A DNA stretch of 64,000 nucleotides from an uncultured virus (IMG/VR IMGVR_UViG_3300042350_005045) (lineage: Duplodnaviria; Heunggongvirae; Uroviricota; Caudoviricetes): IMG/VR virus record IMGVR_UViG_3300042350_005045; one strand, given 5' to 3'. This document shows, piece by piece, positions 8,222 to 53,541 of the stretch; positions within the stretch are counted from its first letter, which is position 1, and every line of letters begins with the position of its first letter. The position numbers and the translations under genes are program-made. The notes beneath the pieces are model-generated. The model was not told the DNA's origin. It searched no databases and saw nothing but the letters and a program-made list of their open reading frames with translations.

Positions 8222-8356
8222 GCAGGCGGTAGTAGCAACCTTCTTACCATACACAAGATTGGCGCGGAGTCAAGGGTCTTTATTTAAAATTTATCTTTAC
8301 TCGCAAAGCTGTAACAGTGTGGACAACTTAAAATGAATTAACGGCAATTGAAGAGC

Positions 8357-8713
8357 ATGTTTTGCAGCCAGCACGAGCCTCTCGCCCTGCTAGTTGAAAT
8401 AACTCCAAAACTTGCCAAGAAACGTTTCAGAGAAAGTATATACCAAGCTTGGGATTACAAATGTGGTTATTGCGGCAATACTGCCACTAGCCTTGACCAC
8501 GTAATCCCACGGTTTAAATCAGGGTGTTCTAATCGACATAACTTGATCCCAGCTTGCTGCCGTTGCAACGCAAACAAAGCGTCGTCTCCCATGGAAACCT
8601 GGTACAAACAACAAGACTTTTTTGAACAGGTTAGGTTAGATGCAATAAAAGCTTGGATGCAACCAGGGCATGTAAACTTAATTGACATGCAAGAATATAA
8701 AGCAGCATCATGA
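8357..8713 (+). CDS. HNH endonuclease
   Basis: CGYCG...SLDHVIP...NLIPACCRCNANK. Confidence 0.9.
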   Translation: MFCSQHEPLALLVEITPKLAKKRFRESIYQAWDYKCGYCGNTATSLDHVIPRFKSGCSNRHNLIPACCRCNANKASSPMETWYKQQDFFEQVRLDAIKAWMQPGHVNLIDMQEYKAAS

Positions 8714-32956: not shown

Positions 32957-33416
32957 ACCACATGCCTTGGTAGTAGTATTACACCAAGGCTTTTGTTTTT
33001 ATCGTGCAACAATACATTAGTTGCTACGATAAAGACATGATCATTGTTCCTGTATTTCGTAAACCCAAGGAATCTGAAATGGCTCTTTCCACTCAAGTCA
33101 AAGAAGCAGTCGATCAAGCTTCCAATTGCTTGCGCGACGCCCTTGCCTTTGCTGCACGCACCGAGCATCCGTTGACTGTTAACACGCTTTCAGATTTGCT
33201 GTGCCGCCTCGAATCACTGGAGCAGGTGGACGAATTGATGCAGCACTTCTCCAGCAAGAACGATGCTCAGTCCCCAAAGCGATGAAGAGCGTCTAGCTAA
33301 GTACTTTGCTCAACTAGGGCGAGAGTTTCCGTACATCACTAAACGTGATGTTGATGACGTTTTGTTGCGTCCATGTAAGTATCGTAAAATACTAGAAGAG
33401 AAAAAGAATAATCCTG

Positions 33417-33515
33417 ATGCCTCAGGATGATAGCAAGTATTCAAAACCTGAGTTACGCGAACAAATTAAAGATCGCGTGATGGCGGGTTCTAAAGGTGGT
33501 AAGCCTGGTCAGTGA
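33417..33515 (+). pseudogene. Truncated 5' copy of the small basic-protein (DUF5872-like) gene
   Basis: MPQDDSKYSKPELREQIKDRVMAGSKGGKPGQ, then TGA where the second copy has TGG. Confidence 0.8.
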
Positions 33516-33550
33516 TTTTGTGCTATAGTAAGAAAAGCACAAACCAACCA

Positions 33551-34159
33551 ATGCAAAAACTTTGCCGGGAATGCGGAACCAGAAAGCCGCATGAAAATTT
33601 TGGGAATAAAGGGTATAACTCAGCCGGAAATATAAAAAGAGACAGTGTATGCAAGGATTGCAGATCTTTGATCAACCGTCGATTTAGATTATTGTATGGA
33701 GCAGACGGTCAAAAACAATGCTCTAAATGTGCTCATTATTTAGATTGGGATTGCTTTAGAAGAAGAAAGCAAGACGGTAAATTATATCTTCATTCTTCAT
33801 GTAAAACTTGCAATAAGTTAAGTTGGGATAAATGGGTAGATAACAATAAAGAACATTATCAAAAAGTTAAAAAACAAGGGCAAGATTTATTACATCACAA
33901 TCACAAAAAATATGAGCGCAGAGGGATAACAAAAGAGCAATACGACATTGTGTTTGAGGCCCAAGAAGGTTTATGCGCAATTTGCCAAGAGCCTCCCAAG
34001 GATAAACAATCTTTAGCCATGGACCATAATCATCAAACCAATGAGTTCAGAGGTTTATTGTGCAAAGAGTGCAACAGAGCCCTAGGTTTATTTGGTGATA
34101 ATATAGATGTATTGACAAACGCAGTCACTTATCTTAAAGAACGAGGAAGTTATGGCTGA
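33551..34159 (+). CDS. Endonuclease VII-type homing endonuclease with N-terminal Zn-ribbon repeats
   Basis: GITKEQY...Q.GLCAIC...LAMDHNH.T...RGLLCKECNRALGLFGDN...AVTYL. Confidence 0.9.
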   Translation: MQKLCRECGTRKPHENFGNKGYNSAGNIKRDSVCKDCRSLINRRFRLLYGADGQKQCSKCAHYLDWDCFRRRKQDGKLYLHSSCKTCNKLSWDKWVDNNKEHYQKVKKQGQDLLHHNHKKYERRGITKEQYDIVFEAQEGLCAICQEPPKDKQSLAMDHNHQTNEFRGLLCKECNRALGLFGDNIDVLTNAVTYLKERGSYG

Positions 34160-34463
34160 AGACAAAAGCAAGTACACAAAACCAGACCTGCGTGAGCGTA
34201 TCAAAAACAAAGTTATGCGGGAAGGCCGTGGGGGTAAACCGGGAGAATGGTCGTAGCCGTAAGGCTAACTAATTATTTCGGCGCGTAAGGCTCAGCTTGT
34301 TGCAAGTGAGTACAAGGAAGCTGGTGGTGGATACAAAGGCGGTAAAGGTAAAAAACAAAAGTCCCTGGAGAAATGGGGCAAAGAAAAGTGGATGACAAAA
34401 GACGAATATGAGAAACGTGGTAAGGCTAAAGCTGCAGCTAAAAAATATAAGGAGAGCAAGTGA
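34152..34463 (+). CDS. Small basic protein (DUF5872-like) interrupted by a 27-nt stop-containing gap (34254-34280); candidate translational bypass
   Basis: MAEDKSKYTKPDLRERIKNKVMREGRGGKPGEWS | ARKAQLVASEYKEAGGGYKGG...; removing the gap restores GGKPGEWSARKAQ. Confidence 0.75.
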
Positions 34464-34669
34464 TGACAGACAAGGCTATACAAAAGGGATATACTAAGCG
34501 TTACTTACCAGAGTCTGCGTGGGCATCACTGTCTAAAGAAGAACGTCAAGAGACAGATCAAAAGAAAAGAGCTGGTAGTCGCGAAGGTAAACAATTTGTA
34601 CCTAACACAGATACCGCAAAAAAAGCAGGACGTGCTGCTCGTGTAGCAAAACGCTACAGGGATAAGTAG
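34460..34669 (+). CDS. Small basic protein
   Basis: RYLPESAWASLS...TDQKKRAGSREGKQFVPNT; coupled to the preceding stop codon. Confidence 0.75.
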   Translation: MMTDKAIQKGYTKRYLPESAWASLSKEERQETDQKKRAGSREGKQFVPNTDTAKKAGRAARVAKRYRDK

Positions 34670-34702
34670 TGCCTTTATACTTAACAAAGATTCCTTTTTA
34701 CC

Positions 34703-35939: not shown

Positions 35940-36011
35940 CGAGATGTAGCGCAGCGGTAGCGCATCTGTTTTGGGAACAGAAGGTCACAGGTTCGATCCC
36001 TGTCATCTCGA
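35940..36011 (+). tRNA. tRNA-Pro (TGG)
   Basis: Acceptor stem CGAGATG/CATCTCG, anticodon stem TCTGT/ACAGA with TGG at 35972-35974, T-loop TTCGATC. Confidence 0.95.
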
Positions 36012-36064: not shown

Positions 36065-36319
36065 ATGCCCTGGAGCCAGGCCAAAAAACGTATCGATAAG
36101 AATCGACAGAAACTTCTGGAGTACAAGAAGACTCTGCAATGCAAGAAGTGTGGGTTGAATGATCATCGTGTCCTTGAGTTCCACCACATAGGTGACAAAG
36201 ACAATAACATTTCATCCATGGTGAACCATGGTTACGCCTGGAGCAGGGTCGAGCAAGAGATCAGTAAATGTATCCCGTTATGCTGCAACTGTCATAGGCT
36301 TACCCATTACGTAGAGTAG
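36065..36319 (+). CDS. Small HNH protein
   Basis: CKKCG...LEFHH...KCIPLCCNCHR..H. Confidence 0.8.
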   Translation: MPWSQAKKRIDKNRQKLLEYKKTLQCKKCGLNDHRVLEFHHIGDKDNNISSMVNHGYAWSRVEQEISKCIPLCCNCHRLTHYVE

Positions 36320-49993: not shown

Positions 49994-51520
49994 TCATTGA
50001 TTTGTTGAGAACACAGCCTCTCCGATGATTGGGAATTCTTTACAGAAAATTCCTTTGATTGCTTCTGCAATTTCTCTGTGCTCGAGTTGGGTTGATTCAT
50101 GGGTCCTCAATTGTAAATAATGTATGTAAGACCTGATAGTGCCATTCATATACAAACGGGTTGGTGCAGCAAGAGGTAACACAAAACGCGCTGACTCTTT
50201 TGCAATACCCTCACTGATCATCTCTTGGTACAAATGCTTGGAGTCTTCCAAGATTGTAGACATCCGTCTGTAGTAGTGAGCAAGCTTCTCACCACCCAAG
50301 CGTTCCTTCAAATCATCATTGGAGTTCTGTCTGTTCTTGTAGTCTTGACTACGTAGATGCGGCAGTATGATGCTGCCTACATCAGAGACATCAGCATAAC
50401 GTTGACTGTTATGAACAACAATTCCATTGGCAACAAAGTTATGAGTTGGATGGTCCATTTCAATATCGTACGTCATTTGAATACCTAAATATTTTTCTTC
50501 TGTAATTTTCCCCCATTTAGCAGTCATCCCTAAAGTCCATCCATACTGTTTGCCTTGTATGGCAATGTCATACTTGCGATGGCATGATGCACATAATGTT
50601 TGCAAATTAGTTTCATCAAAACATAATTCTTCGTTGTTATCGTGTGCAGTAATATGGCTTAATTCAAGACGCGATACAGAACCATCATGCCCACAACGCT
50701 CACAGCTTTGCTGAAGCATTGTAGATCTTGCCCATTTCATAAATGAAGATTTCTTTGCTTCAAATGAAATGTCAATCCTACTAGAGGCTGCATTGTTTGG
50801 TTTAGCAGGAACAATGCCATGCTTACGAAACCATTTACGTGCAGTCACATCTTTTATTCCATACGCTTCAGCAAAAGCTGTTGAACCCATCCAAGCGTTC
50901 TGTTTTAAAACATCGGGATTTTGATAAGGCAAAGGAAAAGTTTCTTTTCCATTTAAAGCAACTGATAAACCTTGTTCATAAGCTTCTTTAAAAGCTACAA
51001 ATCCTTTTTCCTTTGTGAAAATACGATGCTCTTGAGTACAGTCAATTGTTTTGTATGAATCCGGCGCTTCTATAGTGTACTGATAAATAGGTTTTTCTCC
51101 TGACCGATAAACAGAAAGTATGGGAGCTGAAATAAAACGCTCCGCTTCTGGATCATAAGAACGTGCGTACCTTGCCCGGAAAGAGCTTTTATTCCATTTA
51201 GAATACAACTCTTCAATAGGCAAGCGTTGAACTACTCCTGATTCGGTTGAGATAGTGATACGCACATTGCCAGCTAAACAAAATTCCTGGAACGAGAAGG
51301 AACGATGCCTAAGGATCTGCGGTGAGATTGCACGTGTTGTGTTGATTTCAACACACATGTTGGCCATCTCGTACGGCGACCAGTGTTGATGTTTAATCAG
51401 ATAACGCAACAACTTGGGTGCGGTATCCATGTTGTCTTGATTCTTGGGTGCAGAAACGCGTGCCATCTTGACAATCATCTCTTCTGCATTGGGCGTTGCC
51501 CAAACAAGTTGTACGTTCAT
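49994..51520 (-). CDS. thyX: FAD-dependent thymidylate synthase containing an intein
   Basis: HWSPYE; QILRHRSFSFQEF|intein|SQRY; KESARFVLP; LRTHESTQLEHR. Confidence 0.95.
   Translation of the reverse strand: MNVQLVWATPNAEEMIVKMARVSAPKNQDNMDTAPKLLRYLIKHQHWSPYEMANMCVEINTTRAISPQILRHRSFSFQEFCLAGNVRITISTESGVVQRLPIEELYSKWNKSSFRARYARSYDPEAERFISAPILSVYRSGEKPIYQYTIEAPDSYKTIDCTQEHRIFTKEKGFVAFKEAYEQGLSVALNGKETFPLPYQNPDVLKQNAWMGSTAFAEAYGIKDVTARKWFRKHGIVPAKPNNAASSRIDISFEAKKSSFMKWARSTMLQQSCERCGHDGSVSRLELSHITAHDNNEELCFDETNLQTLCASCHRKYDIAIQGKQYGWTLGMTAKWGKITEEKYLGIQMTYDIEMDHPTHNFVANGIVVHNSQRYADVSDVGSIILPHLRSQDYKNRQNSNDDLKERLGGEKLAHYYRRMSTILEDSKHLYQEMISEGIAKESARFVLPLAAPTRLYMNGTIRSYIHYLQLRTHESTQLEHREIAEAIKGIFCKEFPIIGEAVFSTNQ
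50408..51280 (-). mobile_element. Intein (291 aa) with HNH-type endonuclease
   Basis: Starts CLAGN, contains CTQEHRIF, ends TYDIEM...HNFVANGIVVHN followed by Ser; internal CERC...H...NLQTLCASCH. Confidence 0.95.
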
Positions 51521-52391
51521 GAGCACTTAAGGAAGTAATGCCAGCGAGATGTGTGATCAGTGTAACGGATTACAGAACAACCTTCATACTGATCAATGAC
51601 TTCAAACTTAGTGTTGTTCTTAGGTTCATCAGGTAACAAAAAGATTGCAGCAATTAAACCAGTGCCTGCAAAGGCAAGGATTGTTGTGAAGCAACCACGA
51701 TAGAATTGAATTTGATTTTCAGTCATGTCATTCACCAGGAACAAGGACTTCTTTGGTCAGACGTTCTAATGCCGACACGGGACAGATGCGTGCAGTGGCA
51801 TGTTCAGTTGGGCTAGGTAAATGATCCCAACGAACAAGCAAGAACTTTTGGGTGGCACCACGTGAATTGTTTTTGTAGTTGATGCCAACTACTTCACCGT
51901 ACCGCTGGCTCCTGTACTGAGAGATGCGTTCTTTTGTTTGTTGGTTGTTTGTGTAGATTCCGTGGGGTTTGGGACGTTCAGCAACACGGTCACCAATCTT
52001 GTAATCAAACTGTCGCTTGGTTGTCATTGTAATAATTAGTTGTTGTCGGGAAGTTGTTCAAGGGCGCGGCGGATGGTGTCTACACCAAGTTGAGTGGAGC
52101 TGTTATTGAGAATGTGAGCTAACGCCTCTAGCGCCTGCTCCTTCAAGCTCGGGGGCTTGGGACGGCGTGCGGACTGCAAGTATTTGCGGGCGTTGTCGTC
52201 ATACAACTCCAGCAGCGCACAGCACGCCTCCAGCTCAATGTCGGCGCTCCATTGTGCGGCTTGAGTAGCAATGTCTTGCAGCTTGGTGGTGGTAACAGTT
52301 ACTATTACGCACGGAGATAGTGCAGAAAACTCGGGCGCTTCTCGCCACTGCTGCACCAGTTCCCATGGTGGAATGATGGAATGTTGTTGTG

Positions 52392-53454: not shown

Positions 53455-53541
53455 TGGTGCAGACGGCGAGAGTCGAACTCGCAAGGGCAAATGCCCGACG
53501 CATTTTAAGTGCGTTACGTATACCTATTCCGTCACGTCTGC
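53455..53541 (-). tRNA. tRNA-Leu (TAA), CCA encoded
   Basis: Acceptor stem GCAGACG/CGTCTGC, anticodon arm ACGCA-CTTAAAA-TGCGT, long variable arm, TTCGACT T-loop, ACCA end. Confidence 0.95.

Follow-up and report, generated by a model that had tools for sequence, protein, structure and literature searches.

Translational bypassing in gene 60 of bacteriophage T4 has stood as a solitary example through more than 30 years of study. The present analysis concerns a small phage gene in a 64,000-nt stretch of DNA from an uncultured freshwater, cyanophage-like member of the Caudoviricetes (IMG/VR record IMGVR_UViG_3300042350_005045; the whole stretch is referred to below as the window). The gene is conserved among phages and is split by a stop-filled gap of 27 nt, which forms the right (3′) end of a 769-nt mobile cassette (positions 33515-34283) carrying a gene for an HNH homing endonuclease. 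From comparative sequence analysis we consider it likely, with a probability of roughly 0.72, that the gap is crossed by programmed translational bypassing linked to the homing endonuclease. Such a system would parallel the mobA/gene 60 arrangement of T4 in another gene, with a nuclease of another subfamily and probably with an independent origin. Bypassing had been proposed in an initial annotation of this DNA, and the comparative evidence from codons, stop, hairpin, spacer and selection argues in favor of that interpretation.

Excerpts of a preprint by Manning and Atkins (bioRxiv 10.1101/2022.08.31.505936) assign every known T4-type bypass relative to a topoisomerase gene of a T4-like phage; the cassette, in the authors' words, "remains unique". 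According to the same excerpts, T4-type cassettes use Gly or Asp codon pairs and a UAG or UGA stop, with GNRA loops in few clades; one Aeromonas clade has a gap of 20 nt, and the landing codon is preceded, at a distance of 5-7 nt, by a mini Shine-Dalgarno (SD) sequence. The MobA insert is described there as comprising a region homologous to the parental sequence that was deleted and, after it, the bypass, with the landing codon as its end; the bypass is kept after MobA has been lost. No description of another phage bypass system, or of the element reported here, was found in the full-text literature searched, a body that excludes subscription journals.

In the window, the upstream part of the split gene (N′) ends in TGG TCG and is followed directly by TAG; the gap ends in a second TCG, after which the downstream part (C-half) begins with ARKAQLVASEYKEAGGGYKGG, in the same frame as N′. 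Inspection of the sequence and its translation confirmed the open reading frame (ORF), the stop-filled gap and the two matched TCG codons recognized by the initial annotation. Its statement that the C-half lacks a nearby start also held, the first in-frame ATG, GTG or TTG in the ORF list being at about residue 38. Likewise, the gap had been said to interrupt a family motif that is restored when the gap is skipped. Ungapped homologs do read GGKPGQWSARKAQ at this point, including the uninterrupted 94-aa homolog of Synechococcus phage S-EIVl (MAQDDSSYSKPELRERIKDRIMEGDRGAKKGQWSARKSQLLAQEYEKAGGGYKGG...), and a junction motif of this type was found in 72 loci, representing 57 distinct haplotypes. 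The C-half of the window is 78% identical to the S-EIVl homolog. The DNA polymerase is 69% identical to that of S-EIVl, which makes the cyanophage assignment of the initial annotation a putative one, the host itself being presumed. A megablast search of the locus against phage records gave no match.

The ungapped protein matches phrog_17747, a family of unknown function (E 3.1e-21), over residues 7-53, a region that spans the break; against Pfam DUF5872 the read-through protein scored 16.2 bits, under the cut-off of 27.5. An AlphaFold model of an ungapped homolog, built on a 34-sequence alignment, had a mean pLDDT of 74.8. Its confident part consisted of a helix (residues 11-23), a Gly-rich loop and a second helix (residues 35-47), with pLDDT values of 85-89 at residues 11-50. 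Because this helix-loop-helix spans residues 11-50, the break at 34|35 falls inside the conserved core. The family takes other forms elsewhere. In the marine relatives L369, L370, L374 and L377 (~1201-1400) it consists of two ORFs, divided after GGGYK by a stop and an immediately adjoining ATG, and many other relatives have the second part in a different frame. L035 has a single 110-aa ORF that joins the family to that of the window's next gene (34460-34669).

Relatives were collected from IMG/VR by protein similarity and by pattern. A protein-similarity scan with the C-half, from which the best 80 of 539 relatives were kept, returned 70 uninterrupted loci and 10 with a stop-filled gap located exactly at W-S|A. 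As protein similarity was the only criterion for the latter 10, they serve as an unbiased sample, and all of them show every feature of the element. Three pattern scans returned 52 contigs, which with the window make 53 loci and 43 distinct haplotypes of N′, gap and C-half. A loose, flank-anchored pattern that gave at least 119 stretches, mostly unrelated, was left out of these counts.

Gap length varied among the haplotypes: 27 nt (14 haplotypes), 24 nt (13), 28 nt (7), 29 nt (6), 23 nt (2) and 33 nt (1). With gaps of 23, 28 or 29 nt the two halves are out of frame, which is the case in 15 of the 43 haplotypes. Frameshifting, read-through, translation of the gap and other readings that need an in-frame gap were ruled out on this ground, and recoding of TAG or TAA was rejected because two types of stop occur in the gap in addition to the change of frame in those 15.

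The codons at the two ends of the gap are fixed across these differences in length. In the scan whose pattern put no constraint on the take-off and landing codons, the take-off codon was TCG in 51/51 loci. The landing codon was TCG in 41/43 haplotypes and TCT in the other two, whereas the corresponding Ser codon in the 57 ungapped haplotypes was AGT (20), TCT (18), AGC (10), TCG (4), TCA (3) or TCC (2). TAG directly followed the take-off codon in 43/43 haplotypes; the scan patterns required it, whereas the 10 gapped loci from the protein-similarity scan were retrieved without that requirement. The matched codons and the stop that the initial annotation had asked to be looked for in homologous loci are thereby conserved. 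Immediately before the break, the sequence GQWS is present in 55/57 ungapped haplotypes, as opposed to the GEWS of N′, which is specific to the cassette. In the two haplotypes with a TCG take-off and a TCT landing codon (L159 and L331), a hop would need a tRNA-Ser that reads both codons, or these copies may be decaying.

The TAGCC/GGCTA stem that opens with the stop was found in 42/43 haplotypes and, in the scan that left the hairpin free, in 41/42 loci. Its loops were GTAA (26), GTGA (12), GGGA (2), GCAA (1) and GAAA (1), five types that all conform to GNRA. The non-complementary G and A of the loop were invariant, while 31/34 third positions of N′ vary; the constancy of these two bases is more in keeping with an RNA tetraloop than with a DNA palindrome. 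The hairpin described in the initial annotation (UAGCC-GUAA-GGCUA) has a predicted energy of -6.3 kcal/mol, which was equaled by 8/200 shuffled sequences, and is conserved in relatives. The fold of the surrounding 131-nt region as a whole was no better than that of shuffled sequences (z -0.11), leaving the small hairpin as the one distinctive structure. Its motif is present a single time in the window, and a second copy of the gapped gene was found neither in the window nor in the 90%-complete record that holds L089. In three loci, L242 (996-1034), L337 and L355, TAGCTATAATATTA takes the place of the hairpin (-1.8 kcal/mol), with the two TCG codons and both halves intact and with two different C-halves.

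Between the hairpin and the landing codon, the spacer is rich in A and T, as had been noted for the window; pooled over the haplotypes it comprises 187 A, 163 T, 49 C and 9 G (408 bases). The dinucleotide TC is absent from it, before the landing codon, in 43/43 haplotypes. RNAalifold paired GUCG at the take-off site with CGGC at the landing site, a pairing that would close the gap; this helix is invariant and forced by coding and could give no covariation signal. In the loci L084 and L091, which have a 23-nt gap, an ATG within GA-ATG-G is in frame with the C-half (MVVAGRLTNSARKAQ...), and expression of the C-half without a hop is possible there.

The gap does not stand by itself. The cassette to which it belongs, inserted into the phage gene, consists of a junction, a gene for an HNH endonuclease of the endonuclease VII type, N′ with its SD-like sequence and ATG, and the coding gap (Table 1). 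This cassette and the truncated native N-terminus upstream of it are a context that was missing from the initial annotation. The relic of the native 5′ part, designated copy 1, lies at the ancestral position: it overlaps the end of the upstream gene, matching the position at which the S-EIVl gene starts. The 202-aa HNH protein was identified by Pfam PF02945 (E 9.1e-23; 80.4 bits, the cut-off being 23.6) and by phrog_2633, "endonuclease VII" (E 1.8e-33). The start of N′ and the end of the HNH gene share 8 nt, which are read in different frames. With its 34 aa, N′ would sit entirely within the ribosomal exit tunnel at take-off, and it is conserved.

The junction contains an inverted repeat (33518-33542) that ends 9 nt before the HNH start codon and is kept in the cassettes of most loci. 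In L097 it reads TTGTGT...ACACAA, a two-sided change that preserves pairing (i.e., compensatory). This inverted repeat may be a regulatory hairpin of the nuclease gene. A reading of the junction as an old "ARKAQ" remnant was dropped, AGAAAAGCACAA being better accounted for as the 3′ arm of the inverted repeat.

Table 1. Features of the cassette and of the split gene in the window.
Feature	Position	Strand	Description
Relic of native 5′ part (copy 1)	33417..33515	+	32 codons MPQDDSKYSKPELREQIKDRVMAGSKGGKPGQ, then TGA; ancestral position
Cassette left end (junction)	33516..33550	+	Inverted repeat TTGTGCT (33518-24)...AGCACAA (33536-42), just 5′ of HNH start
HNH homing endonuclease, endonuclease VII type	33551..34159	+	202 aa + stop; PF02945, phrog_2633
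SD-like GAGGA	34143..34147	+	4 nt 5′ of N′ ATG; GAGG retained in related loci compared
N′ ORF	34152..34253	+	34 codons MAEDKSKYTKPDLRERIKNKVMREGRGGKPGEWS, ATG start, ending GGKPGEWS; TGG TCG at 34248-34253
Proposed take-off codon TCG	34251-34253	+	Last codon of N′
Gap	34254-34280	+	TAG CCG TAA GGC TAA CTA ATT ATT TCG; three in-frame stops, 27 nt
Hairpin TAGCC-GTAA-GGCTA	34254..34267	+	Opened by stop TAG; 5 bp, GNRA tetraloop
A/T-rich spacer	34268..34277	+	ACTAATTATT; length and sequence differ among loci
Proposed landing codon TCG	34278..34280	+	Final codon of cassette; between-locus identity falls directly 3′ of it
Host-derived 3′ part (C-half)	34281..34463	+	60 codons, ARKAQLVASEYKEAGGG...KESK + stop (34461-34463)

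A check of the insert against reads had been called for in the initial annotation. Contigs from two independent runs of public lake-water DNA span the gap without an indel and, together with the 52 IMG/VR contigs, show the insert to be genuine. In one of these runs (X1), a further contig joins 33514 to 34284 via GTCTGCC, which corresponds to the empty site CAG TGG TCT GCC CGT AAG, and occupied and empty-site alleles are present in one lake sample. The same run (33400-34700) also contained a fragment of the clade with the 28-nt gap, with the loose ends ...GGTTCTGA and CTAAATAAT. As the window-type cassette, the empty site and this fragment were all recovered from run X1, several cassette lineages co-occur with the target allele in a single lake sample. 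The 72 ungapped loci have no cassette. When loci were compared with the window, the cassette interior (junction, HNH and N′) was 0.76-1.00 identical and the flanks 0.54-0.90 (22 of 27 comparisons); separately, identity was 0.84-1.00 for the junction, 0.60-0.90 for copy 1 and 0.54-0.86 for the C-half in the same set. The locus L098, for example, was 1.00, 0.98 and 1.00 identical to the window inside the cassette and 0.81 and 0.78 identical in the flanks. Since empty and occupied alleles coexist and the interior is more alike than the flanks, the cassette is mobile. Some loci have the HNH gene upstream of N′ and no copy 1 (L089, L107, L280 and L324, with an HNH ~50% identical, and also L097, L111 and L115), an arrangement that may be an older, free-standing form.

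N′ was found solely next to the gap, and purifying selection acts on it. Over the 43 haplotypes (903 pairs, NG86), pN was 0.146 and pS 0.569, giving a dN/dS of ~0.15. The ATG and open frame of N′ were present in 52/52 assessable loci, and the C-half was open in 53/53 gap-bearing loci. Copy 1, being similar to N′ in length, served as an internal control. Among 26 distinct upstream sequences that bear the junction, 15 copies ran from ATG to stop, 4 had no ATG and 7 were frameshifted or largely deleted, as judged by eye from the translations. The HNH gene was full-length in 39 of the 53 loci (by tblastn, at the same distance from the gap); of the others, 9 had a C-terminal remnant of it, 3 had none and 2 could not be assessed. 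The gapped gene was intact in every one of these states, including the 12 loci in which the HNH gene had decayed or been lost.

Taken together, these observations suggest the following course of events. The nuclease would cut ungapped alleles at the conserved ...GGN CAR TGG TCN GCN MGN AAR GCN..., and repair would copy in the cassette, with the native N-terminus as the left homology arm and the C-terminal half as the right one. The N′ of the cassette would replace the native 5′ part of the gene, and the gap would keep N′ and the C-half from rebuilding the target, conferring self-immunity. Ribosomes translating N′ would then halt while their peptidyl-tRNA-Ser is paired with UCG and their A site is occupied by UAG, the point at which the 5-bp GNRA hairpin starts. 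The tRNA would un-pair and the ribosome would slide 20-30 nt, past a stretch that offers no cognate triplet, until the tRNA re-paired at the second UCG, the sole cognate triplet; translation would resume at GCN (Ala) and give the 94-aa protein.

Several observations weigh against bypassing, the case for which is built on sequence comparison. Most loci were retrieved by patterns that fix part of the element, the TAG included. Where the hairpin is degenerate, as in loci of the L242 type, both halves are intact; the hairpin may therefore be dispensable, or such copies may be unexpressed. Compensatory changes in the stem, another check proposed in the initial annotation, were not found, the stem being invariant; a metagenome scan for variants of the fifth stem position gave 26 matches, of which 24 were unrelated and 2 were family members of the L242 type. 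No mini-SD occurs 5-7 nt before the landing codon, and the spacers hold only 9 G in 408 bases. The take-off codon lies outside any conserved stem. The TGGT/ACTA extension, which in the initial annotation enclosed the take-off TCG, does appear in the minimum-energy fold of the window, but it is confined to the window-type spacer and is not conserved, the spacers of other variants being different. Selection on both halves had also been proposed as a check. It was borne out for N′ by its dN/dS, and both halves are open; the diversity of the C-half, however, may for the most part be older than the insertion, since the cassette continues to invade intact genes and both clades contain ungapped relatives; selection on the C-half after insertion is accordingly putative. 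A wholly gapped clade by which to date C-half evolution was sought and not found, the ungapped L363, L365 and L366 being among the matches listed.

The same data can be read in terms of a split gene. Termination at the TAG would then free N′ as a 34-aa peptide, the C-half would be made by re-initiation or by non-canonical initiation in or after the spacer, and the two pieces would associate. Homing endonucleases do split genes into working halves, e.g., T4 genes 39/60 and Aeh1 nrdA (excerpts of bioRxiv 10.1101/2022.08.31.505936), and the marine relatives that are naturally two ORFs after GGGYK indicate that this family can work as two polypeptides, a point that also counts against a hop. Possible signals for initiation exist in part of the loci: the nearest SD-like motif (RAGG) lies inside the hairpin, 9-19 nt upstream of the landing codon, the GA-ATG-G start of 23-nt variants (e.g., L020) is in frame with the C-half, and the ARKAQM clade has an in-frame ATG 5 codons past the landing codon. 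A start codon is conserved nowhere, however. The frame leading into the C-half of the window reads TAA CTA ATT ATT TCG, with the next ATG ~38 codons on, and the 28-nt clade has TGA immediately 5′ of the landing codon. Genuinely divided relatives show a stop and then an immediate ATG; here the stop has no such ATG after it. Nor would a split gene explain the fixation of both TCG codons or the avoidance of TC in the spacer, and the break would fall within the conserved helix-loop-helix core. We regard a split gene as unlikely.

It is improbable, too, that the gene is dead, i.e., that the insert is a scar or immunity spacer acting at the DNA level in an unexpressed gene whose halves look conserved through recent insertions into fresh, intact genes. 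The mobility of the cassette, the coexisting empty-site alleles and the ungapped relatives in both clades are what such a reading would predict; the C-half varies as host genes do, and the gene could be dispensable. Yet N′, which exists only in the cassette, has a dN/dS of ~0.15 with 31/34 third positions varied, and disruptions number 0 in 52 N′ and 53 C-halves versus 7/26 in relic copies of similar length. The gapped gene outlasts decay or loss of the HNH gene in 12 loci, it is the sole copy in a 90%-complete genome, and conservation of the non-coding hairpin and of both TCG codons greatly exceeds what neutral change would leave. Removal or alteration of the 23-33 nt in RNA (by splicing, editing, or excision and ligation) is very improbable. 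A stable hairpin at the start of the insert could be a processing signal, and nothing else speaks for it; group I and group II introns are far longer than this insert, and matched codons and the avoidance of TC are not expected under splicing. In an RNA library, a 696-nt contig covering 33793-34465 showed 72 differences but 0 gaps, so that the insert is retained in it, although this evidence is weak, being a single contig from a relative, for which contaminating DNA is a possible source. In another RNA run (X24), part of the HNH gene was covered and the gap lay outside the coverage.

Bypassing, the reading we prefer, invites comparison with T4 gene 60 (AF158101), in which the corresponding region reads GAT GGA TAGCC TTCG GGCTA TCT...GAG ATTATT GGA and the hairpin has an energy of -5.9 kcal/mol, against -6.3 kcal/mol here. 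The two share matched take-off and landing codons, a UAG right after the take-off codon, a hairpin that starts at this stop with the identical 5-bp TAGCC/GGCTA stem, and an AU-rich 3′ part of the gap that lacks premature landing triplets. As far as the excerpts describe the MobA element of T4, further parallels are the location of the cassette directly 3′ of an HNH homing endonuclease, homology to the parental gene that is encoded by the insert and precedes the gap, an N-terminal piece that overlaps the endonuclease ORF out of frame, and persistence of the gap after loss of the endonuclease.

The differences are equally clear. The target here is a 94-codon phrog_17747/DUF5872-like gene rather than a topoisomerase II gene, the phage is S-EIVl-like and not a T4-like myovirus, and the nuclease is a 202-aa protein of the PF02945 endonuclease VII type. 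A comparison of the window HNH with the T4 mobA/60.1 region revealed no similarity (best E 2.1), a limited test in that T4 mobA is a pseudogene. The gap measures 23-33 nt instead of 50 nt, the codon pair is Ser UCG instead of Gly or Asp, the mini-SD 5-7 nt before the landing codon is missing, and the take-off codon, which in T4 lies in the 5′ side of a stem, is in no conserved stem. In contrast to the T4 arrangement as given in the excerpts, in which the upstream part is a working ORF with a C-terminal extension, the upstream gene part here has been replaced wholesale by the cassette copy and left as a decaying relic.

A last difference bears on the origin of the gap, which resembles a diverged duplicate of the local TCG GCN CGT AAG GCT. 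The gap start (TCG TAG CCG TAA GGC T) differs from TCG GCC CGT AAG GCT by small indels, and the empty allele TCT GCC CGT AAG GCT already holds GCC...GGC. The repeat CGTAAGGCT was found in exactly two copies in the window (at 34258 and 34284), compared with 0.27 expected; the first forms the hairpin loop and 3′ arm, and the second, 26 nt further on, the codons for R-K-A. This result agrees with the local duplication that the initial annotation had proposed from the repeat in and after the gap. The sequences fit a gap that is a diverged tandem duplicate of the target site, perhaps produced by faulty repair of a nuclease cut, and an independent origin is suggested because the gap looks like such a local duplicate. 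Homology between the gap and the T4 cassette, to which the identity of the stem and an ATTATT that in each case precedes the landing codon would point, appears less likely than convergence: the hairpin loop and 3′ arm equal the local R-K-A codons, and UAG fixes three of the stem pairs, leaving only CC/GG free. We see about an even chance that this is a second, independently evolved family of phage bypasses, in which tandem duplication of the nuclease target (TCG GCN CGT AAG GCT) gave matched codons and the seed of a hairpin that then converged on the A-site hairpin of T4 gene 60.

Other systems offer partial parallels. In mitochondria of Magnusiomyces capitatus, inserts of 27-55 nt (byps) are hopped between matched or near-matched codons; as reported in the excerpts of bioRxiv 10.1101/2022.08.31.505936, these number 81 per mitochondrial genome, spread in the manner of GC clusters, and have after the take-off codon a sense codon without a tRNA rather than a stop, whereas here there is one copy in one gene with one endonuclease. 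Homing endonucleases of introns, inteins and split genes (such as MobE in Aeh1 nrdA, likewise as excerpted) share with the present element a selfish nuclease in a conserved gene and a way of their own to preserve that gene, which here would be neither RNA or protein splicing nor two working halves but a spare 5′ segment and a proposed hop. In Cluster O mycobacteriophages (Corndog; excerpt of PMC4351075), an HNH gene is inserted 5′ of the tape-measure gene, the downstream part has no canonical start, and bypassing is listed as a possibility; initiation at ACG is equally likely there, and matched codons, a hairpin and a short gap are not described in that excerpt.

If this is indeed a second, independently evolved family of bypasses, homing endonucleases would have come upon ribosome hopping repeatedly, as a general means of disrupting their own target within conserved genes, and a mobile element would rescue its host gene by a spare 5′ segment and a hop rather than by an intron or intein. 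A gap of 23-33 nt, a Ser UCG pair and a 5-bp GNRA hairpin would then suffice without a mini-SD. A second, much smaller cassette in another gene, which has a nuclease of a different subfamily and occurs in nature with several gap lengths, several loops and a hairpin-less form, would provide a compact comparative system for the essential bypass signals. Target-site duplication would in addition offer a concrete origin for a hop, as it would supply the matched codons for free. Recurrence of coding gaps linked to homing endonucleases would also mean that gene callers, which give two fragments or none, systematically miss such genes.

Elsewhere in the window, a tRNA-Pro(TGG) at 35940-36011 (+) and a tRNA-Leu(TAA) at 53455-53541 (-) were found, and no tRNA-Ser. 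A small HNH-type ORF is located at 8348-8710 (+; PF01844, E 9e-7), and a small ORF at 36065-36316 (+) shows an HNH-like CxxC...H motif that was recognized by eye only. The ORF at 49997-51526 (-) encodes a thymidylate synthase ThyX (PF02511, E 6e-40) together with intein-splicing and HNH domains, a second selfish element, which is rescued by protein splicing.

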